Source of the DNA: Trichoplax adhaerens
Taxonomy: Eukaryota > Animalia > Placozoa
Assembly: GCF_000150275.1 (NCBI RefSeq)
Contig: NW_002060944.1
Coordinates: 8,074,735-8,138,734 of the forward strand
Length of the DNA: 64,000 nucleotides
Direction: 5' to 3'
Numbering within the stretch: position 1 is the first letter of the stretch; each line of letters begins with the position of its first letter. The position numbers were made by a program, and so were the translations under genes. This document shows, in pieces, positions 3,748 through 41,622 of this stretch. The notes beneath the pieces are model-generated. The model had not been told where the DNA came from and did not search any database. It saw only the letters and a program-made list of their open reading frames with translations.

Positions 3748-6700
3748 TCAGTCTTCCGTGCCTTCTATAAGTGTATCATGGTCATAATCACTGTTGGTGA
3801 AAATTCGAATTGTATTCGTCACGATGGGGGTAATCTTGATCAAACCTTTGAGCATGCCACCACCGCGGTACCTAACATTTCTATATAAAAAAGTTAAAGT
3901 CCATTGTTATACTATGTCATCAAAACATAGTATGCTACGCATAGCTATAATTCTTTATCACACGTCTAATCAAAAGACGGCTACAGGCAATATTGCCTAT
4001 CTGGAACATATGTATCATTACTAACCCTGGTTGATTCGATATTGGACCGGCATCGTGAGCAGCTGGAAGAGTACGTCGTGGTTGCTTCGATTTTTTGTTG
4101 GAATTTTGAATTAAACTTAATATTAGTCGATATAACACGATAAATGGAGTTAACAGCCACCACAAAAAATCTCTTAAATCATCCTTCCATGACGCTTGCT
4201 CATACTCTTCCGAACTTCCCTACAACCCAAATCATTGCATATATTGAATGAATAAATGGTAATCACATAACAGTTTGTTCAAGGTTGCTTAAGACGCTTT
4301 AATCTCACTAGATGATCATTACCGGTAACACCATCAAGACAGCGCTAGGAACTAGATGCAACGATTCTAATGATTCCAAATAATAATCGTCAGTGAGTTG
4401 TTTTCGAGGATGTAGAGTAGCCAAAGTAAAGGGTCCAAAGTCTGGTCCAACATACTAAGTGAGTGAAACAAATACCACTATAATTTAACACAATACTTTG
4501 AAACAATTAACACACACACTCTATTATTCCTTTCTCTTATTGTAGTTACATTGTACCTGTGCAACATGTGCAACGACATCCTCAAGCAACTCGTGGGAGT
4601 GAAATTCTCGATTCATTGAAGATCCATCCGGAAATCTAAACTGTATTTTACAGGTCTCATTGGTGTGATCTTCAGTCGTAAAGCCACCGGTATCTACCAT
4701 TGGCATATTAGCCGCTTCTTCTTCAGCTTTTTGTCTTTCCATCAACATTCTACGCTTTTCTTCAGCAGCTTCTCTTTCTCGCTTTATTTTTTGGTCAACC
4801 GGTTGCTTTATTTCCATATGCAATGTAAAAGTAAATTTAGTTATATCTTTGCCATATTGTGAATTTTAACTATAAGCACTATTAATTGCATTTCAATATA
4901 AGTCGTTGTTATTTAAAATATTGCAATACCTCTGGTTTACTGGCCGGCTTGCGTCTAAAATAAAAAGTTGATCAAGTTATATAAATTACTTACAATTTAA
5001 AAAAGCAATTAAAGATGCAACTCCCAAGTATTTTTTATTAAAAGAATGGATACGCGAGTATAATACACTTGGACTATATTTCGAAAACTGAGTAAGCGTA
5101 TGGTATTATAAAATTTCATTAAAACATTTATAATATTGCCTTCATTTTGTATAGCTACATATTGTAAATGTATATTTTCTATAGGCATAATTATTGCAAC
5201 TACATCCTAACTCACACATAATCTGTTCCAGCAAAGATTTAAAGATGGATATTATTATACTTTAGCTTTTTTCTGTATATGCGAACTTTAAATGTATTGA
5301 GGCCATACTAGGTCAAAGGTAAGTTTACTACGTATATTGTGATTTCCACTCAAATGTACGTTAAAGGAATAATATGTATTAAAATACACTCTAATTATGC
5401 ACAAAAGAAACATTAATGATCCTACGACAAAGAAAAAAGTTACAGTAACCATCTTACCCTAAACCGAAGAAGCCGGCTTGTGCAGCTGGCGGAGGTTCTT
5501 CGTATTTAGTCTGATTATATCCTGCAGGCTGATTTACTGATCCACCAGCAGCCTCAATTGATGCTAAGTGTTGTTGATGAACCTAACGATATTAAAGTGG
5601 CACTTTTGCATGAAGCTTTCAATTTTCAAAAAAGCCTTATCATCAGTTGGCTTAAAAGTGTTGCTTACAATTATATTAATTCCATAATCAATAGCAATGA
5701 TACTTACTTGGATGGCTTCATTAGCTCTAACTAAAAATTGGCTTGGCTGGATATTTCCAGCTAAAATTTCAATTGGCATTCCATTTTGACCTACGAAGTA
5801 TGTAGATGGTACGTGCAAAACGGGATCTGATATATGCAAACAACTTAAATTAAGGATAAATAGCTCAGATAATCGCTTATATGTACAATTAATGGATTTA
5901 ATACAAGGACTAAACAATTTTTATTGTCGTATAAAAGGGTTTGCACTAACGTTTAATCTAATATTAAGATGGATGATAAGAATGAAATCAGTCAGCCGCC
6001 TAGATAGTTAATTTAATTATGTGATATGCCAGGGTATTTCTAAAGGGAAGCTTTAAAGCGTAAAATATACAAATAAAAATTTCTTTTACCAAAATCTGAA
6101 GGTTTAATCAAAATAATAGGAGCTTTAATAAAGTTATAGAAAATTAAAATATTTTTACCCTTTCGTAAAATATCCTTCTCAAGTTACAATTACTGTTAAT
6201 TTTAGAATGATTTTGGTGTGTTACTATACACGGTACAGTAATCACTTTAAATACGAACGCGGATTCAGTCGCGATATTGTTTAATTAGTCAGTTTGATAA
6301 AAGTATTGATTTGCTTACAAGATATAAAATCCTGACTAGTTATAAAAAATACATTTTTAAATCTCAGGGTCATGCCACGAAACAGACACTTCGAAGTTGA
6401 AAGTCTCGTGATTTTTAATAAACCGAATAGTATCAAAAATCCTACTGTACTTACTGTAGGATTATCGTTTTAATCTTGAAGACAAGAAAGAAAAGGATAC
6501 ATATTTGGCTGAATTGCTTTCCTTCTTTGCTGAAAGTTATAAAAAGAACGAATTTAACACGAATTATACGATTTAAAGGGTGGCAAATCCTGGCAATACT
6601 CATATTTCAAACGTTTTGATATACAGTAGAGTAATTAACCGCGAGTTTTATACTCAAGAATGAATTGATTACATTTCAATCAAGCTGATCAGCAATATTC

Positions 6701-8045: not shown

Positions 8046-8772
8046 TTTAACCGCAATAATGATATGAAATAGATGGAAAAAAGACGAGCAAGATTGCAAC
8101 CGTATGGTTCCTAAGCGATGCAAGATCGATTTGGCCAAGATAGAAACTGAAACGATCCCAACTAGGCATCGTCTACAGTATATATAGTACAGTACAAGAC
8201 AGGAAAGATCCTGACGACAATGTACTGTACACTGTACATTATTACTATTATTGGATTTTCTTAATACCTGTCTGTATATTGTATTTGCTACTCTTGTTTG
8301 CTACACTATATAGTATACAGTATGGTCGTCGTTGAGTGCTATTTCGGCTGGTTACAATCATCATCGTCAAGCCCAACTTGCAGTATGATTCTACTCCACT
8401 GGACAAAAATTAATACGGTACATATATTACAAGGGTACTATCTGAGTATCAACCCAATAATGCATCTTGCAAGATTGACTGCAGCAGACTGTCGATGCAT
8501 GACTCATACATCGCTCAATCACCCATACAGTCCATCATGAACAAGATGAGCACCATATCTAGATGGAGAGGGACGCCAATTTGCTAGCTCAATTCCTCTA
8601 CCATCATCGAAGATCGTCAACGAGAATTGCTATCCATGAGATCAGTAAAGTCCTCATCAGTTCACGATAGCTCTATGGATAAACGATCGAGAGGATGCAA
8701 TCTGTATGCAGTATGAAATGGAAATTAATTCATCATTTGACTATCGAATGATGGGTGGGGAGATGGTATTTG

Positions 8773-9260
8773 ATTCCTCCTGCAAATGGCCGAATAATAA
8801 TTATTAATTAGTAGAAGTGAATAACAAGAACGGCTAAGGATGAGATCGTTAAAAGGTCCATATCTATTAGGGCCGTGGGCATGATGGGGGATTGTATTCA
8901 ATTCCTCCTGCAAATGGCCGAATAATAATTAATTAATAGAAGTGAACTACAAGAACAGCTAAGGATGAGATCGTTAAAAGGTCCCTACCTATTAGGGCCG
9001 TAGGCATAATGAGGGATTGTATTCAATTCCTCATGCAAATGGCCGAATAATAATTAATTAATAGAAGTGAACTACAAGAACAGCTAAGGATGAGATCGTT
9101 AAAAGGTCCCCTATCTATTAGGGCCGTGGGCATGATGGGGGATTGTATTGAATTCCTCCTGCAAATGGCCAAATAATAATTAATGAATAGAAGCGAACAA
9201 CAAGAACAGCTACGGATGAGATCGTTAAAAGGTCCCCTATCTATTAGGGCCGTAGGCATG
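8773..9260. repeat. Minisatellite, ~126-bp unit x ~4, high identity
   Basis: Unit attcctcctgcaaatggccgaataataatt...ggatgagatcgttaaaaggtcc...ctattagggccgt starts at ~8773, 8901, 9026 and 9152. Confidence 0.95.
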
Positions 9261-12007: not shown

Positions 12008-13928
12008 ATGGTCTTAGATGCTATAAGTGAAAATCAAACTGAATCAACATTTCAACGTCGTAATAGTTGGCCACTTATTGAAGAACAGCAACAAGATAAT
12101 TACAATCAAGAAGGTAATCTATGTCAGCTAACAACAAATCAACGGCGTATCTTACGTGATTTCCGACGACTATCACAAGCAGTCGTTAGTATCCCCAAGA
12201 AGGATTCTCTTAAAAAATCCTATCAATCAATTCATTATGTTGCCGCTAGAGTAGGAGGAATAGCTAAAAAATGTATAGGGTTTTTATTTCAATATGTATG
12301 GGATATTGTTTCGGCAGATTATGCTTATATTTCAGAACGTGCCGATTTAGAAGGGAGTTCTGCTATGGATTCTTCTTTAGCCAATCTGTTGAAAAATGTT
12401 CGCTATGAAAATTATCAATTACGATTAGGCGATGATTTGTATGGAAACATTGTTCGTATGCCGTGGAGTTATATCTTTAGCCTGATTGCGGCGGCTTATT
12501 TAGCTGTTAGTATAATCTTCACCTTTGCTTATTTCGTAGCCGATATTCTCGATCTGGATCTGTCTTCTTCAATTTGGCAATGGTTTGTTTATAGCTTATC
12601 GACAACAACGTGTTTAGGTTCAGACAGTCTTGATTCCGATCGTGTCCATCTTTTCATCTTATTGATTGCTAACTCGCAAGCATTTGTATCCCAATTATTA
12701 TTAGCATTTGTCACTGGAATCGTTTTTGCTCGTTTTTCTCGAGGACGTAGTCAAATTCGCTTTGCTGATAAGTTAACAATAAACCCAGTCAATGGTATCG
12801 ACTGTTTGCAAGGCAGATTAACTCCATGTCGGCCACGATTTGGTGTTATTGATTGTAATTTAAGGTTATTCGTTTCCAGACCATATCAGAGTAAAGAAGG
12901 AGAGCACGGTGTAAGGACTAAGTAAGTATGTCTATACTCGATGATGGTCTTAGTGTTACAAAGATTAGTATCATTTTTCCCCTAAGCTATCGCATATTTG
13001 ACACCGATCGTTATCAGGAATCCCACAATTTAATTAATAAAATAGCATGGCTTTATTAATGTTATCTAGTTGGCATAGGATCAAGAAAATTGCACTTTGT
13101 TCTTTAAATAAATGGAATAGAAGAGTTCATTTAATATGTACAATTCCAAATTGTAGACAAAAATGGCCAATTCTTAGCAATTTCATGCTAGAAAACATAA
13201 TTATTAAAGCCTCTAGCAATTATAACCACAATTAACAAAATAAATTTAAAGCATAGGAAACTAATCCTTTCTTAATTGCTTATTATGAAGGCAAGTTCCT
13301 CTTTTAACTGAAACTCTACCAGCCATGTCAATAATGTTAAAGTTTACTCATCGATTAGACGAATCTAGTGAAATTCGCCAAGCAATGGAATTGGGTGAAG
13401 ATTATTATTTGTCTATTACTATTACTGGGGTGGATGCTTGTACTTTAAATCCTATCTTTGATGTGAGAAGATACAAAGCCAATGATATCATAAAGTTAGT
13501 TTTACTACTACTATTAACCTAAATATACGAAAACAAATGTGTGTATATATAAGTATAGAGAACACAATATAATCTTTTCTAAATCGTTAAATAATGCATT
13601 CCACGACGAAAGAAAAAATTTTTCGAGTTAATGCGTCTTTTATATTATTTCTGACCTTGTTGAGATTCATATACTAATAGTAGGTAATATTAGATTCATA
13701 AGTAAATTACCTTAAGTATTTAGCAATTTAGCTATTATGTATGTCCGACTTATTTCCTACTGTTTCTTCGATAGAAATTATAGATTTATCGATATGATTG
13801 AAAAGGTGAAACCGGAGCCTGGATTATCTCTATGCCATTCTAAAACCGTAATCGATTTCAATAAATTAAATAAAGTAACTCCTATAAAAGAGCCCAGCGA
13901 AAGTGACGATAAAGATAAAATGGACTAA
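12008..13928 (+). CDS. Kir-fold channel-like protein, copy 1 (423 aa), filter TCLGSD; exons 12008-12921, 13291-13494, 13775-13928
   Basis: Slide helix DDLYGNIVRMPW, M1, pore helix FVYSLSTTT, M2 ending TGIVFARFSR, and cytoplasmic-domain motifs KEGE, HRLDESS, G-loop TGVDACT, RFIDM, IDFNKL. Two phase-2 GT-AG introns restore a full ORF. Confidence 0.9.
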
Positions 13929-16058: not shown

Positions 16059-17758
16059 ATGGCCGTCAATTTATCTAGTTCTGATCACCATCTTACTCAA
16101 TATGAACGAATAAGGCGTCGACTTAGTTTGCCTAATTTTCAACAAGATCCCATCGGTGATTCTATTCATCCTTCCGATCTAATTTCAAGTCAAAATCAAC
16201 ACCGATTTGGGCGTCATTATCGACGTGTATCCGTGGCTATGAGTAGAATATCGGAAAGAGATTCAATTCAGAACAGTTTACGAGCAATCAGAAACATGAT
16301 TTCTGCCATATACCAATTTATCAAGAAATGGGTCATGGTGATTATTCAGCACGCTTGGGATATCATTTGTTTGAACTATGCGACTATGTCTGAACGTGCT
16401 GATCTTGAGGGACGATCGGCTATGGACTCCTTTTTAATTAAAATTCTAAAAAATGTCCGCTATCAAAATTATCAAATTCGGTTAGCTGATGATTTATATG
16501 GTAATATTATTCGCATGCCTTGGAGTTACATCTTTGGATTAATCGCTATGATGTATTTATTTATTAGCGTTCTATTTACATTTACTTATGTAGCCGTTGA
16601 TAGTCTTGATCTTCATTTGGGTTATTCATTTTGGCACTGGTTTGTCTTTAGTTTATCAACTACAACATGCCTTGGCTTAAGTAATCTCGATGCTGATCAA
16701 GTTCATATCGGCATCTTGTTAATTGCTAACTTCCAAGCATTTATATCTCAACTATTACTAGCCTTCATAACTGGTATCGTATTTGCTCGTTTCTCACGAA
16801 GACGAAGTCAAATTCGATTTGCTGAAAAGTTGATTATAAATCAGATGGATGGTATTGATTGCATTCAAGGACGATTAACTCCACATCGGCCTCGATTTGG
16901 TATTTTTGATTGTAACATTCGATTGTATTTAAATCAGCCCTACGTTACTAAAGAAGGAGAATGTGGACTTAGGACAATGTAAGAATTAATTTTCGCTATA
17001 TGTTAATGGAAGCCATGTTTAAAAGTTTCAAAGGGAGCGTTTACGATTTTACTTGATTTGTTGATGATAGGCAACTCTACAGTAATAATAGTAATTTCTT
17101 TTCATTAATTATACAAAGTATTAAATATTTTACATTCATTTTTCTACTATCATTAGCTAAAATTTACTTCGTTATGAACGAAATGATATCGTTGATCACA
17201 ATAGTTGTTTGATTGGACTTATGAAAGGCAATGACTAAAAATAATGTCTAATCTTACTATTCTAGAGAGGTTCCATTATTGATAAATAATGTCCCAACCA
17301 TGGCTATCATGATGAAGTTTACCCATCGATTAGATGAATCTAGTGCAATCAGAAAAATGATGATAGACCCTAACAGTGATTTTAGTTTAATGACAACTCT
17401 CTCAGGTGTTGATGCTTGTACTCTAAATCCAATTTTTGACGTTAAAAGATACCATCGAACTGATATCAAAAGGTGAGCTATACTTTATTATTCTTTTTAA
17501 ACTTTAAATTATTAATATTTAGATATAAATTGAATTTGAAATTAGATAAATTGGCATTCTTTTAATATTATAATTATATAATAACGTTATTTTTACGGGA
17601 TCATTTGTATTAGAGATCACAGGTTTGTTGACATGTTGGAAAGAATTTATACGAGTGAAACCGAAAGTGAAGTTCACATCGATCTCAATAAATTAGATCA
17701 AATCATACCAGATCAAAATGGAATTGAAAAAGCGAAGGATAAACAAACTAAAGCATAA
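16059..17758 (+). CDS. Kir-fold channel-like protein, copy 2 (423 aa), filter TCLGLS; exons 16059-16978, 17266-17472, 17614-17758
   Basis: Same motifs and intron positions as copy 1; 207-nt exon 2; spliced frame open to TAA at 17756-17758. Confidence 0.9.
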
Positions 17759-21399: not shown

Positions 21400-23880
21400 T
21401 CTATTTCATGCTATACTATTAACCAATTGTCACAAAACAGCTTTGCAACAAGATAACGCAATATACGATCAATAATTCAATTCCTTGAACCACGTATCAA
21501 GGAACGATATCTGCACTATCACAAACACTTTTGCTCTACTAGCAGACTACACAAAGACTTAAACGCCTCGTATTTTACGTTAAACACTAAGTTGGACAAT
21601 TCTTCTTTATTTCACGATATACTGCATTTATATACTATTCCTCAATAGTTCATGAGTCATAGTTAATACAATTAACATTAGAATCACTTACTGAATTAGA
21701 TATTAATTTTAGCTACTGCTCCCTTAATGCAGACAACAGTATTTACGAACATAGACATATAATGACTAATACAGAATAGTCAGATTACGATATGTCCTAT
21801 CACGGAACATTTCCATGATAATTTACAGTCTACTATAAGTAAATTACAATCACAATGATTCGAACTGTAAGCAGATGATTTGCATTCCCTATTAGAACTA
21901 TTAATTTCAGTATGTGTATAAGTGTCACTGTCATAAAAAGTCAGTGCTATATTAAAATACAGTATATCCAAATTAGAAGTTAACTAAATAAGGATAGTCT
22001 AACAGAATTATCCTAACATAGTTATTTCTACTGTAATACAGTATTTAACACTGTAACACCAATATATTCGATAATATAGTTATTCCATCTTTTTAATACC
22101 GATTTTACGGTATTAAATAACTCATCTATACAAATAATGGTATTTATTCACATTAACTATCTTACTTTCAAGTATATATCCTTTTATTTAAATATGTGAT
22201 AAAGCATCAAATAGAATTCGTCAGCGATGACATTCATACCGTGTAAAATTCTACAATTAATATTATTCAGTTAATTTGACTAATAGTTAAGTAAAGCATG
22301 TCTTCTTTTTATTCAAATATGTGATAAACTGTCGAACAGAATCGGCTAATGATAACATCTATACCGCATAGAAAATTACGGTTAACATCGCAATCTATAT
22401 CATAGTTCTATCTCCTAACTTTTATATTGTACATTACAATAAAGTAAAAAATTTTCGGACCTGTGATAAAGTGATCTTCAAAACAATAAATCAAGAACTA
22501 CAGTTTCTTGCAAATTTCACTTTATTACAGAAGTTAGGTTCGTCTAACTACCAAGGACTATCTGACTATCTGATAATCTACTTATTACAGCAAAATTCAG
22601 GATTTATTTACGATTAGTTACAGAATGCTTTTACTGTAACAAATCTTATCTTGCCCATTAAGTCGCAAGATCAGATCTAAATTTACTATCGCGCAATCTA
22701 TTCATAATTCGCGCGTCTATTTAAAGCATTACAATACAATACTTACGGTACTAACATACTTAGCGCAAATCTATTTATATCTCAGATCTTTATATAAACA
22801 TCTTAATAGATTCGCTACAATACGTACTGTAAACATCTTCTACAAATAGACTCTTACACAATCTTACACTCTAGCTTACAAGTTAAGTTATTCTCGTACA
22901 GTCTTATAATAGTAATCTAAGCTATATTTGGGGCTGCACTACAGGACCTCACTGACTATTAACGACCTTTTAGCATATTTATTTATGTTAATACGCTAGA
23001 AAGCTATTGTAAATCTGCTACATTTCATAATATTCTATCTTATCATCAATGCATGCTTTATTCGATTTTTTCGTATCAATTTATTTAGCAATTAACTTTA
23101 AGAGTACTATGTCATTTTATGGATCCATACCCTTTATATATTTTACTTTCAATGCATAGGAATCCAACGGAACCTAATTTAAATATTTTCATGATACATT
23201 GATCAAATACTGTTACAGTGTTACACACTGTAACATCGAGGTTAGCGTAGAAGTATCTATGCTAGGATAATTTTGTTGGTTTACTCTTATTCAGTGAGTT
23301 TCTAATTTAGATATGTAGTGCTTAAATATAGCACTAGCTTGTATTGCAGTGATATATGTACATACGGCATACTGAAATTAGCAATTAAATTAGGGAATTG
23401 AAAATAATCTTCATACAATTCAAATCACTATGATTGTAACCTACTTATGGTAGAGTGTACTGTAGGCTATCGTGGAAATATTCCGTGATAGGATATATTG
23501 TAATCTGATTATTTTGTATTAGTCATTAGATGCCTATGCTCATAAATATTGTTGTCTTCATTAGGTAGCAGTAGGTAAAATTAGCTTTTGATTCATTAGA
23601 AGGTTTCAACGTTAATATTACTAACCAGGATGTCTAAACTGTTGTAAAAGAGTATATAAATACGGTATATCTTATAACAAAGTTAGTTCTTAAGATTCGT
23701 GTTTAGCGTAAAATATGAAGCGTCTAAGTCTTTATGAAGTCTATTAGTATAGGAAAAGTGTTCTGATAGAGTAGATATTACTCCCTGATACGTGGTTCAG
23801 GGAATCGACTTATTGATTGTACATTACGTTATCCTTTTGCAAAGCTGTTTTGTAACAAATAGTATCTGCATATGATACAA
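21400..23880. repeat. Long inverted repeat: arms ~21400-22035 and ~23240-23880 with ~1.2-kb spacer
   Basis: The reverse complement of 23701-23860 aligns colinearly with 21426-21585 (e.g. acaaaacagctttgcaa; tgaaccacgtatca), and that of 23247-23336 aligns with 21944-22031. Identity is roughly 75-80% by eye. Confidence 0.88.
22462..22943 (-). mobile_element. Solo LTR (482 bp) of an LTR retrotransposon
   Basis: Termini TGT...ACA, flanked by perfect 5-bp target-site duplication GGACC (22457-22461 and 22944-22948). Minus-strand AATAAA lies ~60 nt before the end. A second copy is at 45372-45688. Confidence 0.85.
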
Positions 23881-24822: not shown

Positions 24823-27800
24823 ATGCCAAGATCACCTATGGAAGTACCCGATTTTCAAATTAACGATACCCCTAGAACGCCTAAGAGACGTCACAGTTGG
24901 CCAGCTATTTCCCATCGTTGTTGCAATTTAGCTTGTCAAGGCCATCATCATTCCATTTCGATGCATCCACGGCGATTAATTCGTCATCTATCTCATATTG
25001 TATCGAATACCAGTATTTCACACTCGCCTTTGCTTCGAGCAACATTACAATCCTTTTTATTAGCTATGCTTGCCACGAGCCAATTCATCAAAAAGTGGTC
25101 CATCATCATTATTCAGTACGCTTGGAAACAAATTTGTTTAAACTACGCCGCAGTCTCGGAAAGAGCTGATCTTGAAGGAAGTTCAGCCATTGATGATAAA
25201 TTTGCCGAACAACTTAAAAATGTACATTTTCGAAATTATCAGATTCGATTAGACAACGATTTATTTGGCAATCTTGTACGAATGCCATGGAGTTATATCT
25301 TTGGCCTGTTTGCTGTGGCCTACTTGACCATCAGTATCGTATTTACCATTACATATACAGTAGCGGACATCATCGATTTTGATCTTTCTTATACATTTTG
25401 GTATTGGCTAGTCTTTAGTTTATCAATCACAACATGCTTAGGCTCGGAAAACTTAGATCCTAATCGTGCTCATCTATTATTAATCTTGATTTCTAATTTG
25501 CAAGCATTTATCTCGCAAATATTGCTGGCTTTTGTTACTGGAATTGTTTTTGCTCGTTTCTCTCGACGACGATGTCAGATTCAATTTGCTGATAAATTAA
25601 TTATTAATTCGGTTGACGGAGTTGACTGTCTCCAAGGAAGACTAACACCCATTCGAGCACGATATGGTATCTTTGATTGCCATATAAAGCTATACCTAAC
25701 CAGAGGATATCGTACGAAAGAAGGAGAACATGGTATTCGAATTACGTAAGTCTTAGCTAGAAGGATAATTCTACTATTTATTACAATTTTTCGTCCATTT
25801 CCATCCCAGTAGAACTAATCTTTGACATATTATGAAATGTAATTAATCTTTTATATCTATCTGGTCCTGAATGACAAGATTAATTGTAATAAATTCTAGT
25901 ACGCTAATATGAAAGCTACTACTTGGAGGAAAGATCTTCTATACATGCGATCAATTTGCTCTACTCTTCATCGACTAACGTCATGAAAATAATCTCTTGC
26001 TTAATTAACATTACGACGATTTGTAGTGCACTATCGTACAAGTCAGAACGAGTTCAGCAATCCATAGAGGATTCTTAAGGAATAAACTAGGTAGATAAAA
26101 ACAAATTAATAGTTGACCATGATGGCAACGGCAATATTACGTCAATCTTTCATTATTTTCAATATCAACTAATAAAATTCATAACTAACATAAATATTTG
26201 ATGGGCATCATTTTTAAAGTAGGTTATGACTTATCGTGTGACAGTAAAAATTTCTTTGCAAGAGCTGATTAGAAATAAAGCTACACAGAAAATAGTTAAA
26301 GTGATTTACGGAGCTACAGTAAAGGGCAAAGCCTTATCAATGGGATTAGTTGAATAGTTATAATAAATGATAATAATGTTAGAAAACAGTATTTTGGCAA
26401 TATAAACGAACAAAATATCGCCCCTAAATTAGATAACAAAGCAAGAATATGTAATCAAAGATCTGAACGTATTGTTCTGGGTAATTTTATCTATCTTATC
26501 TAGATATCAGTAGTTTTTAATATGAAGTAATCGACTGTATACAGTAATTAATATCGAGTAAAAATTAAAAATTCTTCTTTACACTTTATCATCTCTTTTA
26601 TTGAATAATTATGATGTATCCAGATATGAATTGGCATACTTTTATCTTTATGCTAATCAATCGATACTGTCATAGATAGATGCCGGTAGCTGAGAGTTCT
26701 TAGGTATAAATGTATCTCTGGACGAGTAAAAATTGAACATTCTTCTCTATCATTCTATCATCACTTTTATTAAATAACTGAATGCATCCTGATATGAATT
26801 GGCCACGCTTTTATCTTTATAATAATCAACTGACTCTTCCATAGAGAGATACAGATAGTTGAGGGTTCCTATATACCAGTGGATCCCTAGACCAGTAAAA
26901 ATTGAAAATTCCTCTCTACGACTCCATCATCACTTCTATTATTGAATGGCGTATTCTTCAGATATCCATTGGCGCACTTTTAATTTTTATTCTAATCAAC
27001 TGATACTGTCATAGAAGGGTGTGGGTATTCGAGCGTTCTTAAGTATAAATGGACCCTAGTTCTTTACAAGAGAATCTTAATAGACTATAGATAATCTTAA
27101 TAATACAGTTCTACGACTTAAAATTGAGTACAGTAAATCAATGACGGTTATTGCTTGCCTACTGCTGTTATAGTCAAGGTGTTGTATTCAAAACACTATC
27201 ATTATAGTTCTCTAGTTTGGAGTAAATGTAGTATCTGCCTTCTATGTAAAAGATACATTAATAAACAGCGATCAAAGGAAAATTTTAACTAATATTACAG
27301 ACTTTAGCCTATATTGATCCATATTGATCCGTTAGCACTTTTCTGCTAGGTAGATATAAATAGAGACTACTTTTCACATCTTTATGCTAATCAACGTCTA
27401 TCGCAAGTTTGTAAGAAAATCAGTTCTTTAGTAAGAGGCCGATAATAAAAAGTAAGATGGTAGCATCCGTCCTTAGGGGACTAGTAGTGTCAAAGATACT
27501 ACATTTAGGCGTAGAATAGTCGAGTGCTATTAGTGAGTAATTTAGGGACGATAGCTGCTGTAGGCGATAATGTATGGCGCCTGGGTAGGCGGTGTCATGT
27601 ATTATGAGAAATGGAGCAACTAGCATATAATCAACTACAGTGCACTATAGGCGGTATCAACATATCTCAGCAGTTATAATGGAGGATATAAAAGACTGAT
27701 CCTTTAGGAGTACATTCAACCTGAGATCTAGCTGTGTGCCGATTACATGTCTAGGTTTTAATGCTATAATACTCAACAATAATTAAGTAATAAACTGCTT

Positions 27801-30800
27801 CTATCTGCTAATAATGGAAGATAATTTATTGAGAAACTTCTCTATGATAGAGATAGAAAATAGTACCGTACTAACTACAAAATTATAATTCATGAAAGTA
27901 AAGAGTGCATAAGCGTAAATGAAGCACTAATTTAGTGCAGGAGGACTTACTATACTGGAAAATTTTTATAACCACCGATACGCTTGAGTTCTAGCCTATA
28001 AACGTTGATATCTTGACTAGCGTTCTCGTCTGTACCACTAATTTATATATTGCAGTTGAATATAAAATTAATACTATTAAATATAGGGTCGCGGATCCCT
28101 TATATTAGATATATAAATATAGAATGGCTAAATTCCCATTTAGTTTGAGGAGACTAAAAGGAGTAAAATTAACCAGCTATTTTACTAATATCCATCTGTA
28201 GTAAAACTGAAATCAAGAAAATGCCAGTGGATAGGAACAACTAGTTATAGCAATATTTTAGGAGTCCAATGTCCAAGAAAGATAAACTAACAATTAACGA
28301 AAAGGCTTTACTTTTATATTGTATATTGATTCGTTGAAGGCTAGGATAGATGAAGTAATTCATGTAGTACTTGGTTAATTAAAGAGCAAAATCCGTACAC
28401 TTGTTGTATAAACTACAAGTCTTTAATTAAATATCCATCATTTTACGTTATTTAATTGAAAAAATAGGTTAGTAAACATCGATTAATCACTAGAGGATAT
28501 CTAATTCTTAGTTTAAGTGATAGAATACGTATATCAAAAACACATTATCTAAAAAGCTACTGAATTTTACTATACATTTATAAAAATACCAATATCTAAT
28601 TCTAATTTTAATTCGTTCAATATTAAAGTAAAATTGCAATATCTTACCGTATAAGATTGTGTTTGTTTAAACTTCTACAGCATTCTTTTCAATCTTCTGT
28701 CATATTATAGTAGAGTATTTTCAGTACCAAAATTAGTTGATTAATAGTGAGCCATTCCAGTAGAATCTCAAGAAAATAACACTGATCCTATCCTGTCATG
28801 GTTTGATATGAAATCGTGCCCCATATTTTCGATGAGAGATTACAGTAATTATTTATTGAAATGCAATTCTTTGTACACCCATACTATTGTCTATCAGATG
28901 AATAATAGTCAAAGCAATATCTAATTAGTCATCTAAAATTTATCTAAATACTCCAAGTACTACAATCTCACCATCTTATGAAATTACAAAAATTGGGCCG
29001 TCACTGTATTGCATAAACTATAGCCTCTATGGGCTAAAAAGATTGATATTAGCACGAAGATGCTAACTTTTTGAACAATAAGAATATTAGAATACTTTAG
29101 ATTGCTCTACTTGATAGTTACAATGAAGTCTTCTATGCAAAATTTCCAATTAAAAATTAGTCTACGTGACCTATAACAACTTTTCCAAGGTGATACGTGA
29201 CCATTAAAATCAATTTTACATTGCTCTGTCATTTAACCGTAAAGATGAGGAAATCAATTTGGAATTGCCAGCTAGAATGATCCTAGACAGGTTGTCATGT
29301 TCGAAATTGATCTGTTAATAAATGCACTTGAATTATCACAAATGAAGCCATATGGTTATTTTTATACTAACTGCGATAATGTAGTTAAATACTAGTAATA
29401 AGATTTTTAGATTGCAGCAAAAGTTCATATCCTTAAAGTAATCTCAGTCTGATAATGATTTCTTTCTACTCCTTTTCAATACAATCTAAACCCTCGTAAG
29501 CTATGCATTCACTACTATGTAGAACGAGTATATTTCCACTATTGAAGGTCATAGGCAGACTAGATGGTGCCCAGAAGGGGATCCCTTCGACGTGATAGGA
29601 AATCTTGATTACTCCTTTTTCCTAGAAGCAGGGTTTATAGGTCATCATATTATTATTAATTTACCAAATACGTGACCAATAAAATCATTTTGACCGCTTC
29701 CTGTTTGATCGCTTTGAGGATAGAAAATGTCAACGTGTGAAAGTAGAATAAGATTAGTTACTGTATAATTAATTACTCTAGTGCAGCTTGGAGTTTAACC
29801 TTAAATGAATTCAATTATGCTAAATGGAAAATTAGTAGTAACTATTCATATTAGTTCCAGGGGTACCAGTGAATCTGCAATCACGATTACCATATGCGAG
29901 AAAGAAAGATACAATAAGATTAAACAGTGTATAATTAATTACTTTAGTGCGGCTTGAAAGCTTAGCTCTAAATGAATTCAATTATGCTCAGCGAAAAACT
30001 TACAGTAACTTTTATTTCAGCTTCGGTGATAGTAGTGAACAAAAAATTACGGAAATCATACATGAGAAGGAAAGGCAAAACTTTACTTTCAATTAAATCT
30101 TAAAATCGTAATCACATTCTTCGAACTCTTTCCGTTGTTTCTCTAAGTTGTATTCTTAGTTTTAAAAATCTTGCATTAAGAAAGGTAGTATACGTTGATG
30201 CTATCATTAGATTATCCTAACCAGATTAGAGTATCGATATAGCTATTGCATATCAAATTACCACAATTGGATATCTTAAATTATTTCCAGAAACGAGTCC
30301 AAAGTCTATTCTATTAATATTAATTCGAGTAGTACGTGACTAGCGAATTAATTTTGGTATAATGTCTGAACTTTAATACATAGAGGGAATTAGTGGGAAT
30401 CATGAATAGATTATGTTATACGAGTTTTAGGAAAAATTGCCACAAAAGAGTGCACAAGCATTTCGCTCTCTAAAATGATCTAATGACTTTAAAATAATGA
30501 CATCTGATGAAATAGCATTTAACAGCTATAACCTGCCTATTTGGTCAATGATGAAAATTCAATATGAAAACGAAAGAAATATACCAATCCACTACCTGTT
30601 CAAAATAAAAATGATCTATATATTTCATTATAACATTTGCTGGCAGGTATCGCTTTGAATGTTATTTCAATATATATCTACTGCGAACAAAAGAAAATCA
30701 ATGCCATTAATAAATAATGCTTGATTACGATATAGAGATGAAACATTCCTGTATAAAATGGATATCATTAAGCACTCTAAGTGCTCCACCTATCCTGTAT

Positions 30801-33015
30801 GTGGGTCCATGGTCAATTTATATCAATTTGGCAGACTACATGACTGTTAACTTATAAAGCCATTTCGCCATATTGTCTCTACATAATGATAGGCGATTCC
30901 AAAAGAATCATTCTATATTATTTGGCATGACTGTAATATTAAGGAGGGCTATCCAAATTACTTGCAAAATAACTTGATATCATGTAACCCAATTTAGTGG
31001 CTGGTTTATGTCAGTTTCAGAAATACTAACATTTGCAAACAAGAACAATACAATATGAAATTGAAAGGAGAATAACAGGAGCATATTTAAAATATCATAA
31101 AATTCCCAATATCATGTCTATTTCTGACAATAGCGTGTTGTTAATATAAATTAATTACGGTTCAACTATATTGTGGATATAAATATGCAAGGTATAAAAT
31201 CGATGAAATTAGGTATTTAATATAGTTTATTAGTATATTTGAACCCTTTATAGTAGTATTTCGTCTCAAAATCGCCTATTCTAAACTAAAGTAATCAATC
31301 TACTAATGTTATATGGTATGACAAGCTTCTGCGTTGCTTTTTGAACCCTATTGAATGCGTGAACTCTTTTTCAGGTAGATGTAATTTATCTTCCCTTAAT
31401 TTGCTTCATCAAAAAGAAATACTCTTAAATTTTGAGGATCTCAAATAATCAGAGCTCACTCTACTCCATTTTAAAATCACTAGTTGATTGGATGGACAAG
31501 TTTTATGCCGCAATTTAAAATAGTATTAATTAATAAAAACATTCCACGGATCCAATCGTACAAAGATCTATTCAATTCACTCAATACAATTACTTTTTGC
31601 TCTTTACATGGTATCCCTAATGATCGATAGCCCCTTGGAGTATAAATTCTTCTTTAATTATCTTTATGAAAGCCTTCTAAATCGTTTTACATTCAAAATT
31701 GTTAGTTGCAAATGGAGTCACGTAGTAGAAGGAAAGGAGATTTTAGGTCACGTACCATGTGACACCTAGTGGGATAGAATTCATCGTTTTGTCACCTCAA
31801 GGCTTAAATGGCGTGAATTCTTTTCCATGAATAGACAGTAATTGTAATAGTAGCCTTACTTGTACACTATTACTTCACTGAATCACTACGAAAATGATTA
31901 GGGACAATGAAGATTGATCATGATGTATATCCACATCTCTTTCCATAGTTATTCTTGTTTTATTTCGGGTATCTTAAGTTAGTAAGAATATTACTTGCAT
32001 GTATAGTACAGTAACAGTATAACTGGAATAAACTATCAGTATACTTACAGGAAGTGAAAGCTAAAACTGACTACAATATTCTATCATCCCTAGTCGATTT
32101 CGTTCCTTCATTTAGTCATTCTACTGTTTATTACTGGTATAGATTAAACTACTAATATTCTAATAGAGTAACGGAACTTAACCAATCGGACTATTCCATC
32201 GTTATATATTTATTTTCTCTTTTAAGCTTCTTGATTTAATATTGTTAGACTAACTAATTTTTCAACTCAGTTGCAATGCCGATTGTAAGTTAATTCAGGT
32301 ATAGCTAGAATGGATTATCAATTTCTATTAAAGTATCAAAGATTATAGGCTGCTAGTTCCAATGCCACTGATAAATTTGAGCGATGATAAATAGTTACCT
32401 TCAGTCATTGCAATTGCTTATATCAAACTGAGATCTAGACTGAATTAATTTATGAAACAATTTATCTAGCTTATATTTATAACTAATCGACGGGGAATAT
32501 GAAAACATAAAGTAATGAAATATTATTTTAATTGATATCAACCTAGGCAGCTACCTTTAGTTAGTGATAACTTCCCTATTCTTGCATTGATGGTCAAGTT
32601 TACCCATCGACTAGATGAAATGAGCGAGCTTAAGAAAGCAATGATGGATCCTAATGAAGATTTTGGGTTAATGGACACTATCACCGGTGCTGATGCTTGC
32701 ACCTTAAATCCAGTTTTGGACGTTGGCCGATATCGTCATGAAGATATCATAAGGTGCAATCTTTTTTACTATTTACTTCGTCAATTTGAAGCATGATGAT
32801 AGTATTACCTAAACTAGGTGAATTATATACGGTTGCATTACTCTAAATAGTTCGTTATATAATTATCCATGTCTAGGAATTATCATTTTATTGATATGAT
32901 AGAAAGAATACGCATTGAAGCCGACAGCAATGATCATGAACTTTACGTGGATTTTAATAAATTAAACCAAGTTATTTCGCTAGATAAGGCGGAGGAAGAA
33001 TTAGCTACTGATTAA
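24823..33015 (+). CDS. Kir-fold channel-like protein, copy 3 (422 aa), filter TCLGSE; exons 24823-25745, 32547-32753, 32877-33015 (6.8-kb intron 1)
   Basis: Exon 1 ends AC|GTAAG at the paralogous position. The next paralogous exon 2 (QLPLVSDNFP...HRLDEMSEL...TGADACTLNP, 207 nt) and exon 3 lie 6.8 kb downstream, in frame with no stops. Confidence 0.85.
26555..27058. repeat. Tandem repeat, ~168-bp unit x3, in Kir copy 3 intron 1
   Basis: agtaaaaatt.aa.attc...catc.ct..tatt...gatat..attggc...ctaatcaa..gatactgtcataga starts near 26555, 26723 and 26892. Confidence 0.85.
29762..30075. repeat. Tandem duplication, ~166-bp unit x2, in Kir copy 3 intron 1
   Basis: tgtataattaattact.tagtgc.gcttg...taaatgaattcaattatgct at 29762 and 29928. 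Confidence 0.8.
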
Positions 33016-36221: not shown

Positions 36222-37760
36222 ATGGCTTTTCAAAATGCTCAAGATATCAAGAATGCCGCAATACAAGAACGTCGACATAGCTGGCCACATCAGCCAAGGA
36301 TGATGTATCCTAACTTTAGCTCAAAAAATAGCTCAAGGTTTAATTCACTATCGTATCTACGACGATTATTTCGCCGGATATCTCGAGTTATTGCCGATAC
36401 TCTAATGCAACCTAATCTTCTTTGTATGACCGTCAATGCAATTCCGTGGATGATACAATCACTCTATCGATGGATCAAGAAATGCATCATCTTCTTATCT
36501 TTATATCTATGGGATTGTGTATGCTTAAACTATATCAGGGCTTCAGAACGTGCTGATTTAGATGGAACTTCGGCGATGGATGATTCATTAGCGAATAGAT
36601 TAAAAAATGTCCATTTTCAAAATTACCAAATCCGCTTAGATTATGATCTATACGGCAATATTGTACGAATGCCATGGAGTTATATTTTCAGCCTCTTTGC
36701 TATGATCTATTTAGTTACTAGTATCATCTTTACCTTTGCTTATGTTTGTGCCGATTTAATTGATTTTGAACTTGGTTATTCATGCTGGCATTGGTTAGTT
36801 TTTAGCCTATCGACCACTACATGCTTAGGTTCCGATAGTCTGGATCCTGATCAAGCTCATCTTTTATTAGTTTTGTTAGCTAATTTACAAGCTTTCATAT
36901 CTCAGTTATTACTAGCATCGGTGACTGGTATAGTCTTTGCTCGTTTCTCACGACGACGAAGACAAATTCAATTTGCCGATAAATTAATCATCAATCGTAT
37001 TAATGGTGTTTCCTACTTGCAAGGAAGATTCACACCCATTCGACCAAGATATGGCGTATTTAATTGCATTATTCAGTTGTACTTAACTCGATCCTATCAT
37101 ACTGAGGAAGGAGAGAACGGCTTTAGTGTTCAGTAAGTGAATGCGGGTATTAGTTAGAACAATTCATTAAGGCCTATCCTTTCGATGTTGTTTTCCTTAT
37201 ACCCATTATCGATTAATATAACCTTGACGGATTCGATTATTGTTTTAACTCTATTCTCGATCATTACAGTGCATTACCGCTTGCTTGTGATACATTCCCA
37301 ATTGTGGCTATGGCGGTTAAATTTTCTCATCAATTAGATGATTCAAGTCTTCTTAGGCAAACCTTGACGAATTCATCGAAAGATTTTGGTCTAATCGTTT
37401 GTGTCATGGGTGCTGATGCTTGTAATATGAATCCAGTGTTTGATCTTATTCGATATCGTCGAGAACATATCGTCAAGTAAGACAAGAGCAATTTCAGTTG
37501 AATTTTACTTTGCAGTTTTGTGTTTTTAACATACATTCTAACATACTTAGATTCTGAAATAAATTCGTGCATTCATTTTCTTGCTGTTTATTCATTCTGT
37601 TGTCTATGCTTGCAGAAATGCTCGCTTTGCCAATATGGTAGAAAATATCTATTCCAAAGACAACAAAAAAGATGTTTATATCTTTTGTGATAAATTAAGT
37701 CAAGTCATACTGTTGAAAGATTATGAAACGGAAGAGAGTTCTGAAGGCAAAGAAATATGA
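36222..37760 (+). CDS. Kir-fold channel-like protein, copy 4 (420 aa), filter TCLGSD; exons 36222-37132, 37270-37476, 37616-37760
   Basis: The first ATG is at 36222 (the ORF-track start is a TTG). Paralogous motifs and phase-2 introns are present, and the frame is open to TGA at 37758-37760. Confidence 0.9.
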
Positions 37761-40700
37761 ATAACTGAAATTGACGACTCTAATCTATCCAGTTTATTTG
37801 CTCTTACTTTATTTACTCGATGTAATTTAAATTAACAATATGATTAAATCAAGTTATTCCACTCAACAAAGTTTCAAAGGTTTAAGAGTATCATTAGAGA
37901 ATTCGTGGTATTCTTATTCCGATGATTTATTTAGTTTATTCATTTTGTTCTCTAGTGGATATAATTTTATATACATAATTTTTTTCGACAATATTTGATC
38001 CTAAAAATACTATGTAGACTATTTCTTTAAGTAGTTTACAGCCCATCAAGTTAGGATAATGCTAGCAATAAGTCTGAATAAGTTTATTCTAACGCTCAGT
38101 GTTTATGTCCTGATATCATTAAAATTGATCACAACTGAGCTAAAGTAGATTACAGCTGTTTGACAAGCGGTTGAATTCTAGTCTTTTTTGCTACTCCTAC
38201 ATGTGAGGAATGGCAAACTTTTGATAAGGCTATGTTAAATACTATAATTTGTAAACAATATTGTTAATAACAATTAATCATCTCCAATATTCATATCTTG
38301 ATGATCTAGAAGAATATAATTAAAATCGATTTGCAGAATAATGATGTTTACTTAGCTTTTGAAATTTACTTTATTTCTATCTTAACCTACTGTAATGTAA
38401 CTTAGTATTATGATTGTAGACTGTTAGCCATGTGTAGTATAATGTACGGTAGATATTTATCCTAAGAGATATTTGGTAGCTGTAACTATAGACTGTAGTG
38501 ATAGAGACTCTATGCTAGAGTACAGATGACTATATACAGTAAGCTGTTGAGTTACTAATATGGCTATAGATAAAAATAGAACTGTAAATCATATATTAGG
38601 ATATGGTTAATTCATTGTACTTTGGCTGGTGTGAATAATGTCTACGTAAGTACTGTAGTCGTATCCATATTGGATTAATAATGGTCCGCAGTAGAATAGT
38701 CTTACTAAGAATAATTTAACTATGTGTAAAATAAGGTAAAAGGTTGCCATGCGGATTGTAGCTGCGAATGCTACGGAAAGTATAAAAGCATGCAACTTTA
38801 GATTATTCTGTTAGTTCGTTCTAGAAGTCTTTAGTAGTAGTATTCGGCTAGAGTAGAGCTGTGTAGTTAATCTTTGTATAAGATTGAATAAAGCCCTTAT
38901 TTTTCTAAAATTTGGAATTTCGTGATTGGTATATATCACACCTACCTTAGAGTAAATTAGATACTACATTTTAAAAGACATCCATCTGCAAGTATTGATA
39001 TATCAGACGGCATAGAATAATGATGCTTTTAAAAACTGATCTACCATGAAACATCTACCATGAAACATTATGTTTATATATCTTCTATTATACAATCTAA
39101 TCCATGTTCGAGAAAGTATATTGTTAATAAAATCATTAGCTTCATTTATATCTTAATAATCTAGAATGGTAGACTAGATACAATAATTTAGAAGCCAATC
39201 ATCTCCAATATTCATATCTCAATAGCATAGAATGAGACTATATTATAAAACCGATCTACCATTAGTAACTGTGTTTATATAATTTCTATCGTAAAAGTGA
39301 TCATTGTCCCCATTCATATCTCAATAATTTAGAATAATCATTACTGTAACTGATCTGCAGCAAAAAATTAAACTAGATTGACTCCTACAGTTAGATATAT
39401 GTAAACTGTATCTGTCTTGATCTATTTTAACGCAGCCTAGACAGCAAATCTTCTCTATGATACTCAATTAATTTAGTATGCTAATTATTACGATAAACTA
39501 CCCTAGTTGGTAATGGGTAAATTTAGCCTCATATCTCTATAGTTAGACTCCATAATAAAATAAGCAGATCTTCAAAATCATCCTTAACTAATCTAGTATG
39601 CTAATTATTGGAATAAACTATTCGGTAATGGGTAAATTTATACTCATATCTCAATAATCTAGCTTGGTCATGACTATGGTTGATAGACACTATGGCAAAA
39701 CATGTAAACCTTTTCTATCATCCTTAATTAATCTAGTGTGCCAATTATATAGTATTTTCCAGTATCGTTACGCTAATCATCTTCTATGATATCATTTTAC
39801 TATTCTACAATTAACCATACTCTAGAGTAGGTTACCATAATATTATTTGAGCAGCTTCTGCCACATTAGTAGATATGCCTTGTCATAGATTACTATAAGT
39901 CCGTGGCCTAGTCTACAAATCTTTCTCTGATGTTCTTACCTATCTTACGTGGTATTTTCTTACAATGATTGAATTAATCACACTATACAGCCTATACCCG
40001 CTATAATAATGTATCATAATAACGTTTAAGCAGCTTTAGTCATTTTTAATTTGTCTACATGACTCGTCTGCATAAACATCATTCTGCGATGCCCCTATCC
40101 GATTCATCTTCATGATTCTTATTGCAAATATTGAATAAGTGACGAATTCTCTCATATATTATAACAGAATTGAAACAGCCTCTCTCATTATCTTTATCAT
40201 CACCTTGAGCAATATCTTGTTGATAATATCATATTTATTAAATTGTTTCTAACTTATTATCTAGCTTTATTTTATTCTTCATATACTCGCATAGAGATCA
40301 AATAGATCAAAAAGATCAAAATCAAAAATAAGACGTTTTGATCCGTCTCTGCTGCCTTCTATCTTGACTTGATCTATTTTAAACTACCAATACTTTCATT
40401 TTATACGAGTGTCTTAAAGCAGCTTCTCTCATTATCTCAATCATCTTTAGTAATGTCTTTAAATATCATATTTATTAAATTGCTATTAACTTACTATCTA
40501 GTTTATTTTATTCGTTTCGTATACAGATCAAAAACATCAGAATCAAAGGTAATGACACACTTCAGTCTATCGCAGCCACCTTATAACCTGGCTCGATCTA
40601 TTTTAAGCTATTCATATTCTCAATTGACACTAGCATGCTATTAAGCATAAATGTGTGCACCAATAGCTGCGACGTTAAGAAAGCGCCGACAAGATGTTAG

Positions 40701-41622
40701 AACAAACTATCCATTCTTGTCTTCATTCTTTCATTAGAATCTATTTTATCTAAGCCTGCAGTCTTTTCATCTAGACCTGATCCCTTTCTAATCGTTTCTA
40801 TTTTTAATTTACTTTAGTTTACTATTAGCTAAACATCTATACAGTGAATAAACTGTTGCGATGTACATCACGATGCTGACAAACTATGAAAATATTCTAT
40901 CTCTTTTTTCGGATCGATACTAGTACCATGGAAGATCAAAGTCGACGATAGCGATATGCTTTCCAAAGATGTAACGGGCATATTGTTTCCATCGTAATTA
41001 TAAATATCAGTCTTTGTTGTCAAATAAATCATAGAAACTGTTTACTATTATAAAGTAAATTCTATACTATAGTTTGGAAACACAATGAATCAGTATTTCA
41101 ACTGTTTGATCCTTTTCTAGCTCCAGACACCCCAGTTAGAATTTAATCAATGAAAGCTACTATTAATTATTAATCTTATAAGGCAGTACTAATAGAGTTT
41201 TAAAGGTAATAATAATAATTATTATCATGGCTGAGTTTGATGCACAGTAGTGTACCTTGAGATGGACTCATAAGAGCTTGAATATACTAAGTTGCTACAT
41301 AGAATATGGTTATCCATCCTGGATGCTCAACAAAATATAGTTATAAATTCATCCTAAGTTGATTTTTGATCTGCTAACTACTTTACCTTGCTGTATCGAG
41401 TATACAAGATAAACCATATTCTTCTCGTTAGAATTTGAATTATTTATCCCCAAAAATAGACCCTAATGATATTATTCTATCGATAAATAGATATGATACG
41501 TTTATTTGTAATAAAAGTAATCGAGTGATAGTTTTAATATTTGTCAATAAGTAATAGCATCCGACTAAATCGATAAAGCTACGCTTTGATATTTTAAACT
41601 TGAACAATTCTAATCAATCTTA

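Follow-up and report, generated by a model that had tools for sequence, protein, structure and literature searches.

A seven-gene array of Kir-fold proteins with rebuilt pores in Trichoplax adhaerens, possibly derived from a microbial gene

The 64-kb window of the Trichoplax adhaerens genome analyzed here (the whole stretch of DNA, in which all positions are counted) contains seven open reading frames (ORFs) of 308–340 codons on the + strand, each followed by two short exons. They form a real, expressed nuclear gene family, whose products are predicted to have the fold of inward rectifier potassium channels (Kir). The comparisons support a family that is not an animal-type Kir, and since all copies have lost the potassium filter signature, the proteins are probably not K+ channels. 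We read the array as a microbe-derived Kir-fold family that would have entered the placozoan stem, has a rebuilt pore, is likely tetrameric and is likely not selective for K+; the probability of this reading as a whole is about 0.4. The initial annotation had described indel landmarks shared with prokaryotic KirBac channels as signs of horizontal acquisition or of an ancient retained lineage. These landmarks are real but are no proof that the gene came from bacteria, and the rebuilt filter is a surprise that lends itself better to testing.

Placozoans lack neurons but signal electrically, and reconstructions of early animal excitability draw on the set of channels they possess. The genes are already annotated (the orthologue in Trichoplax sp. 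H2 as ‘ATP-sensitive inward rectifier potassium channel 10’, with other database labels reading ‘uncharacterized’); their non-animal type and lost filter appear to be new. A literature search, whose coverage did not extend to subscription journals or to a 2019 preprint on the Trichoplax transcriptome, found no paper joining Trichoplax and KirBac and none on the non-animal type or lost filter of the family.

The genes of the array are the following:

12008..13928, + strand: gene 1 (flagged in the initial annotation; TRIADDRAFT_53814, 423 aa), model P0205; exons 12008–12921, 13291–13494 and 13775–13928; introns in phase 2, GT–AG
16059..17758, + strand: gene 2 (TRIADDRAFT_53815), filter CLGLS, model P0003
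24838..33015, + strand: gene 3, filter CLGSE; predicted model joining database proteins P0004 and P0020 across a first intron of 6801 nt
36222..37760, + strand: gene 4 (TRIADDRAFT_53818), filter CLGSD, model P0006
41623..43210, + strand: gene 5 (TRIADDRAFT_53819), filter CLSSE, with HHQFVDM inside, model P0010
46845..48444, + strand: gene 6 (TRIADDRAFT_53820), filter CLSSE, a recent duplicate of gene 5, model P0011
51386..52962, + strand: gene 7 (TRIADDRAFT_53821), filter CLSSE; 420 aa in the three-exon reading, 447 aa in the database model

The spliced models of genes 1, 2, 4, 5 and 6 are identical to the database proteins. Both introns are in phase 2 at identical positions in genes 1–6, and the boundaries of gene 7 agree. 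The joints 12921→13291 and 13494→13775 (GT..AG) of gene 1 are present in contigs of four out of four sequencing runs, one of which is recorded as RNA and the other three are presumed RNA. Intron 1 of gene 7 is joined in an RNA contig of run X6, while RNA cover of genes 5 and 6 is low or absent and is not counted as evidence either way. The array lies on a 9.7-Mb contig with eukaryotic neighbors and has orthologues in Trichoplax sp. H2. Rickettsial DNA is known from the Trichoplax genome project (the main text of PMC3641634), which would suit contamination of the assembly by a bacterium or symbiont; this explanation was nevertheless rejected as close to impossible because the gene 1 introns are spliced in all four runs, and the contig and the H2 orthologues speak against it as well.

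Rebuilt pore, fold and possible function

The following features were distinguished in gene 1:

12056..12073, + strand: N-terminal RRx[ST]xP motif (RRNSWP), present in 12/12 placozoan-type proteins, which are homologous, so the count is not of independent cases
12203..12352, + strand: predicted long amphipathic helix ahead of the slide helix, residues about 66–115 (H66–115 in the AlphaFold2 model), without counterpart in KirBac
12431..12553, + strand: slide helix and membrane helix M1, from sequence comparison and predicted structure
12572..12643, + strand: pore helix with the rebuilt filter loop, where STTTCLGSD replaces TxxTxGYG; 11/24 columns invariant; rate of non-synonymous substitution (dN) 0.10–0.20 versus saturated synonymous rate (dS) between old paralogues
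12650..12763, + strand: membrane helix M2 with the family-specific N-x-Q-x4-Q, TGIVFARF bundle crossing and short basic linker; 17/32 M2 columns invariant

The loss of the K+ filter signature had been omitted from the initial annotation. The family was compared in an 85-row alignment (10 placozoan, 31 bacterial-type, 14 protist-type, 26 animal and 4 long-linker eukaryote rows), in which the group labels are partly analyst-assigned and most bacterial-type rows are labeled from protein size. In addition, a profile of 11 placozoan-type sequences gave 1432 hits among 1.84 billion representatives; the best 150 were listed, 145 of them non-placozoan-type. The TxG[YF]G signature is found in 0/10 placozoan rows versus 26/26 animal rows and 132/145 profile hits. 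Its place is taken by CLGSD (four rows), CLSSE (three rows), CLGLS, CLSSD and CLGSE: Thr is replaced by Cys, Tyr by Ser or Leu, and the second Gly by Asp, Glu or Ser, and genes 5–7 have also lost the first Gly. In all ten rows the pore-helix Glu/Gln is Ser, and the residue equivalent to D172 (Kir2.1 numbering, taken from the available text of PMC3283738) is Leu. The upper hinge Gly has become Ser or Ala; the lower Gly and the gate Phe are retained. On the cavity side, M2 position −8 is Gln in 12/12 placozoan-type proteins, 0/115 animal anchors and 1/136 profile-hit anchors (P0056). The M2 motif matched 7/7 window genes; in GTDB it found two stretches, neither of them a Kir gene, and no viral contig contained it.

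Invariant columns are far more frequent in the pore and M2 than in the N-terminus (12 of 130 columns), and membrane-region dN between old paralogues is 0.16–0.19 versus a dS of about 1.5. Judging by these figures, the new pore is evidently under purifying selection, and its filter was not lost by decay.

Pfam IRK (PF01007) and IRK_C (PF17655) matches are present in 6/6 full proteins, four of which exceed the curated cut-off (IRK_C); the IRK score of the full gene 1 protein is slightly under its cut-off. No NCBIfam family matched the three placozoan proteins scanned. An AlphaFold2 model built from 122 sequences has a mean predicted local distance difference test (pLDDT) score of 83 and consists of M1, pore helix, M2 and beta-sandwich; since the alignment consists largely of canonical channels, the loop may be biased. 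It supersedes an earlier model from 11 sequences (pLDDT 54). The top structural match is KirBac3.1 (Z 18.6, root-mean-square deviation (rmsd) 6.9, 259 aligned residues), tied with the cytoplasmic domain of Kir2.1 (Z 18.4, rmsd 2.5, 172 aligned). The prediction is a confident Kir fold with an intact pore helix.

A four-copy model scored 0.57 versus 0.00 for the best control, with contacts agreeing to at least 82% and pLDDT of at least 65, values that may owe something to memory of solved Kirs. The same mark was reached by 21/30 microbial and 17/29 eukaryotic self-pairs of solved proteins and by 0/23 and 0/30 single chains, a calibration on pairs, unlike the four-copy job. The models suggest that the subunits likely assemble as tetramers. 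The predicted N-terminal helix has a hydrophobic moment of 0.33–0.76 and 4–7 charged residues in ten proteins. A weak match of residues 46–88 with a C-type lectin chain was treated as helical noise.

As for function, a filter lined with Cys, Leu and Ser, together with a Ser or acidic residue on the outer side and the polar Gln facing the cavity, would let cations pass, and the retained bundle crossing and cytoplasmic domain would gate the pore. The chances are about even that cations do pass with little K+ preference. Because the D172-equivalent is Leu, strong rectification is unlikely, and weak rectification might be expected. The RRx[ST]xP motif presumably represents a kinase A/14-3-3-type consensus, and its phosphorylation could control trafficking or gating.

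NaK is a pore-loop channel with an altered filter, read as having lost K+ selectivity. The kinetoplastid GYX proteins, in the available text of PMC3283738, are likewise pore-loop channels whose altered filter is read in this way. Both belong to other families, whereas the change in the placozoan proteins is larger and is set on a Kir scaffold. According to the same part of the paper, Prole and Marrion read the GYX filters as non-selective or non-functional. The latter suggests that the subunits, whatever their origin, might be non-conducting and serve as silent or regulatory partners or as sensors. The loss of the filter Tyr and second Gly in all copies, of the first Gly in genes 5–7, and of the upper hinge Gly would fit well. 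However, conservation is highest in the pore helix, the loop and M2, new polar cavity residues have been fixed, and a mere partner would hardly be expected in seven copies where related species have a single canonical Kir, so we hold this explanation to be rather unlikely. Still less likely is an unusual filter that remains K+-selective: a filter of backbone carbonyls tolerates GFG and GLG variants (available text of PMC3283738), and the preceding TT and the loop length are conserved, but the four replacements in the filter and pore helix listed above, the last of them in 10/10 rows, argue against it. The small probability that is left falls to the conduction of other solutes. If the proteins do conduct, nature has provided in them a series of rebuilt Kir filters for direct tests in oocytes.

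Indel landmarks, relatives and origin

Most of the sequence landmarks of the initial annotation were confirmed in the flagged gene. It has a short M2 linker (TGIVFARFSRG, five residues, then F; 12713–12763), a spacing of 26 residues from EG to the H of HRLD, and a short M1-to-pore stretch with no Cys pair, the last being shared by 10/10 placozoan rows. The KirBac1.1 motifs given there agree with the PDB chain sequence. The quoted examples RP-SRLIQ-F and HHQFVDM do exist, in genes 5–7 and gene 5 respectively, that is, outside 12420..13880, to which they had been assigned; the versions of the flagged gene are RG-RSQIR-F and NYRFIDM. DLY-x7-W (12431–12466) is present as well, but was dropped as a landmark because the D..W spacing of 9 is identical in every group (24/24 scored animal rows). 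The large membrane exon also stands: the first coding exon is 914 nt, while the median exon of the neighboring DNA-PKcs gene is 94 nt (14 exons, RNA joints); a single large exon is weak evidence on origin.

The linker length is 6 in 10/10 placozoan, 31/31 bacterial-type and 13/14 protist-type rows, and 9 in 26/26 animal and 4/4 long-linker eukaryote rows. The EG–H spacing is 26 in 6/6 full-length placozoan, 31/31 bacterial-type, 7/14 protist-type and 3/4 long-linker eukaryote rows, and 28–37 in animal rows. The M1-to-pore length is 42 in 10/10 placozoan rows and 46–78 in 24/26 animal rows (one row has 27, and one was not scored), and the extracellular Cys pair is found in 0/10 placozoan versus 26/26 animal rows. 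The lengths given for the animal type come from animal Kirs in the set found with a sponge Kir query, not from Kir2.1. The short states claimed as KirBac-specific are therefore present, but their specificity was overstated: they are common to protist Kirs, and a fourth indel and an M2 Gln are animal-like. Because oomycete and malawimonad Kirs have the short linker and mostly the spacing, both are best read from the alignment as ancestral states and not as bacterial marks; ‘KirBac-type’ indels are thus an ancestral state that is found in several eukaryote groups.

Among solved channels, KirBac1.1 and KirBac3.1 (PDB 1p7b and 1xl4) are the best relatives both by fold and by sequence (78 and 70 bits with the placozoan profile, versus 61 for Kir4.1 and 31 for Kir2.2). 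The family resembles them in the short linker, the spacing of 26, the short Cys-free turret and the TGxVFARF bundle crossing. Unlike KirBac, it has no TxGYG and no hinge Gly, two extra residues between filter and M2, an N-terminus extended by 130 residues and bearing RRx[ST]xP, two spliceosomal introns and an animal array of seven genes. It shares its architecture, the filter-to-M2 spacing of 32, the M2 Gln and basic residues after M2 with canonical animal Kirs (Kir1–7; sponge P0237, Actinia P0273), but lacks their Cys pair, 3-residue longer linker, 28–37 EG–H spacing, pore-helix Glu, D172-type residue and filter. The sponge query gave 120 animal-query hits, and none of these exceeds 66.5 bits with the placozoan profile.

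The best hits among those listed are bacterial-size metagenomic proteins with 130, 127 and 115 bits, while the best named eukaryote has 97. Species records were looked up for 26 of the 145 non-placozoan hits; they include three named bacteria and six eukaryotic records (Gefionella, Aphanomyces, Pythium, Phytophthora, Spirogloea and one species-less EukProt record), and no named animal or holozoan protein is among these 26. Named bacterial-type rows are few (Deltaproteobacteria, Acetobacter, Bdellovibrionaceae, Ca. Binatus), and P0056, P0062, P0063, P0118, P0146 and P0352 have no taxon name. P0016 shows 28% identity to the placozoan family, and no viral relative of it was found. Peptide patterns revealed no close prokaryotic relatives in 185,579 GTDB genomes, and a scan of JGI metagenomes gave generic matches only (21–32% identity).

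Short-linker protist Kirs (Gefionella okellyi P0029, Aphanomyces, Pythium, Phytophthora) are like the family in being eukaryotic and in having the short linker and a spacing of 24–26; in P0029 the filter is also degenerate. Unlike the family, with which protist Kirs form no supported group, those of oomycetes are fused dimers, and their filters are intact. Two-domain tandem Kirs in one chain were seen in oomycetes and in other protist-type records (P0043, P0084, P0121, P0030, P0146). The metagenomic protein P0056 resembles the family in the pore: it has the Gln at M2 −8, the upstream Asn, Gln −13, the spacing of 32, a pore-helix Ser and a GLS filter, and it is the best-likelihood sister under the posterior mean site frequency (PMSF) mixture model. 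However, it is only 24% identical, and the pairing vanishes once pore and M2 are removed; the cytoplasmic domain speaks against it, with a site log-likelihood of −8.7 relative to the P0016 tree. The likeness may therefore have arisen by convergence. Degenerate filters were also noted in the Kir-like proteins P0056, P0062, P0128 and P0029 (metagenomes and Gefionella). The ESM Atlas cluster nearest both P0001 and P0056 has 105 members, of which 85% are eukaryotic and only 21% carry IRK; it may be a wider degenerate-pore family.

Among placozoan-type proteins, P0002, P0005, P0007, P0009 and P0015 each cluster with individual window genes, so the array appears to predate the divergence of several placozoan lineages. 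Four of these proteins (P0005, P0007, P0009, P0015) end at the exon 1 boundary, and P0002 runs on into the intron. One Kir is listed among 54 channel rows for Cladtertia and one among 61 for Hoilungia, with best human hits of E 1.1e-73 and 1.5e-73 (supplement 3 of PMC12749960); going by that supplement, placozoans therefore also own a canonical Kir. The 32-gene expression sheet of PMC12749960 has no TriadG5381x–5382x entry, four of its identifiers being unmappable, and the accessible portion of a 623-organism survey does not list the family under its TriadG numbers. In the available text of PMC5095125, Trichoplax is reported to express KIR mRNA, the genes not being named. The main text of PMC3641634 (Driscoll 2013) on transfer candidates does not contain ‘potassium’, ‘channel’ or ‘5381’.

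Phylogeny was analyzed on 81 rows (4 gappy rows of the 85 were left out), with 26/120 animal-query hits aligned. Approximately unbiased (AU) tests were run in IQ-TREE on 40/85 rows and 275 columns with shortened searches, under PMSF and LG; the PMSF site profiles came from a guide tree favoring placozoan–animal monophyly. In all unconstrained trees with animals, the family lies outside a branch of animals and long-linker eukaryotes (Shimodaira–Hasegawa-like approximate likelihood ratio test (SH-aLRT) values of at least 99). The AU tests reject a grouping of the family with the Kirs of cnidarians and bilaterians (p 2.7e-10 under PMSF, 0.0012 under LG), and a grouping with all animal rows but P0352 gives p 0.045 (PMSF) and 0.041 (LG). 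Nesting inside metazoan Kir clades, set out beforehand as the refutation of both proposed origins, was thus not seen in the unconstrained trees, and these AU tests speak against it.

Because that grouping is rejected and free trees place the family outside, a duplicate of an ordinary placozoan Kir is unlikely from the phylogeny. A fast-evolving duplicate that lost its animal insertions would account for the animal-like spacing and M2 Gln, and its long stem could have been pulled to outgroups; the position as sister to all animal rows is not rejected (PMSF 0.097–0.105, LG 0.119). It would require, however, an exact reversal of the 3-residue and roughly 4-residue insertions and the loss of both turret cysteines; moreover, the cnidarian and bilaterian grouping failed although the guide tree favored placozoan–animal monophyly, and an earlier fast LG run rejected placozoans with animals (p 0.0145). 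Altogether we regard such a duplicate as improbable.

More weight is due to vertical inheritance of an old short-linker Kir paralogue of eukaryotes, which placozoans alone among animals would have kept, although this too seems unlikely. Short-linker Kirs are known in Gefionella and the three oomycete genera, monophyly of all eukaryotes (AU 0.40 under PMSF) and grouping with protist-type rows (0.43) are not rejected, and the nearest Atlas cluster is 85% eukaryotic. The mixture of ancestral and animal-like characters, together with an intermediate position in a 190-row tree, suits an early branch. Such retention would require repeated losses (sponges, ctenophores, cnidarians, bilaterians and unicellular holozoans), and the 97 versus 130 bits and the lack of a holozoan name among the 26 records looked up also speak against it.

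We weigh transfer above retention because retention needs many losses, and over a distribution that is partly surveyed we put an origin from a microbe at slightly better than even. A bacterium is tentatively the first candidate for the donor; a microbial eukaryote is a weaker one. In such a scenario, a short-linker Kir gene from either source would have entered a placozoan ancestor and acquired an N-terminus of 130 residues as well as two introns in phase 2; the pore would then have been rebuilt, followed by tandem amplification alongside the separate canonical Kir. The narrower version, in which a bacterial KirBac gene became an animal-regulated family of new selectivity through the change from TxGYG to C-L-G/S, a phospho-switch and seven copies, is doubtful. 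If a microbial origin is true, the family represents a rare transferred ion channel in an animal; if the bacterial version is true, an animal would possess a pore-loop ion channel family of microbial descent, and nature would offer an example of a Kir scaffold that conducts something other than K+. KirBac-type genes were also observed on plasmids of Synechocystis, Caballeronia and Fulvitalea (H1–H10), and the KirBac family is thus mobile among bacteria.

A number of points weigh against a transferred and rebuilt family. The filter-G to M2-G distance is 32 in 10/10 placozoan rows and 115/115 animal-query anchors (it is 30 in 124/130 profile-hit anchors and 31/31 bacterial-type rows), and Gln at M2 −13 is found in 12/12 placozoan-type proteins, 114/115 animal anchors and 14/136 profile-hit anchors. 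The ‘bacterial’ rows are mostly size-labeled and nameless, and the Atlas clusters nearest the family, which are leads only, are mostly eukaryotic. Besides the monophyly of all eukaryotes and the sister position to all animal rows, which the tests allow, a position within bacteria is allowed and not favored (p 0.154 under PMSF, 0.096 under LG). The tree supports are SH-aLRT or FastTree values, not bootstraps. The family stem is 1.2–2.4 substitutions per site long, its attachment is unstable, and no donor is resolved: depending on the tree, the family attaches to P0056, to P0016, or between long-linker eukaryotes and the rest. GC content at third codon positions of six array genes is 0.26–0.31 versus 0.315 for DNA-PKcs, a native composition, which is expected if the transfer is old. 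Finally, the putative kinase role of RRx[ST]xP is read from a consensus, and conduction and selectivity from sequence and models.

Other placements tested under PMSF gave p 0.29 (with animals and long-linker eukaryotes), 0.51 (with Gefionella), 0.385 (with P0016) and 0.72 (with P0056). With pore and M2 columns removed, the family stands beside P0016 in a 40-row tree (SH-aLRT 90) and between long-linker eukaryotes and the rest in a 190-row tree (support 0.17). Since bacterial, protist and sister-to-animals placements all escape rejection under the mixture model, horizontal transfer is plausible but unproven. Of the two origins offered by the initial annotation, a bacterial-type gene or an old eukaryotic branch, the shared part, ‘not an animal-type Kir’, is supported; between the two the trees give no decision, as no donor clade has support and neither topology is rejected. 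Likewise, the seven tandem copies and two introns are seen, and the landmarks do not demonstrate the bacterial origin attached to them.

Gene models, repeats and flanking genes

In gene 7, the tail of the three-exon reading (52827–52962) is unlike the tail of the 447-aa database model. The first intron of gene 3 (25746–32546) is 6801 nt long versus 137–369 nt in genes 1, 2, 4, 5 and 6, and it contains a 169-bp tandem repeat (26557–26941). In databases this gene is split, with exon 1 and exons 2–3 given as separate proteins (P0004 and P0020).

Genes 5 and 6 are located in a duplicated block, the copies of which (40482–43827 and 45689–49067) are 80% identical. Their non-synonymous divergence is close to the synonymous one, e.g., 0.125 versus 0.151 in the C-terminal domain, with few changes; this pattern suggests relaxed or diversifying selection. 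The blocks 43432–44237 and 44483–44783 are 75–77% like 53078–53853 and (inverted) 54724–55028, from the region of the 3′ end of the DNA-PKcs gene, and these pieces were apparently copied together with the channel duplications. The intergenic stretches 43257–44158 and 49479–50229 between channel genes are covered by contigs of several runs.

The flanking genes are the following:

1666–2530, + strand: DNAJC9-like gene
4524–5920, − strand: UBX-domain gene
about 53780–62972, − strand: DNA-PKcs gene with many short spliced exons

Upstream of the array, a stretch of higher GC content holds four copies of a 125-bp unit with 92% likeness (8756–9260). Between genes 2 and 3 there are two inverted repeats of 650 bp that are 75% identical to each other (21427–22058 and 23211–23858).

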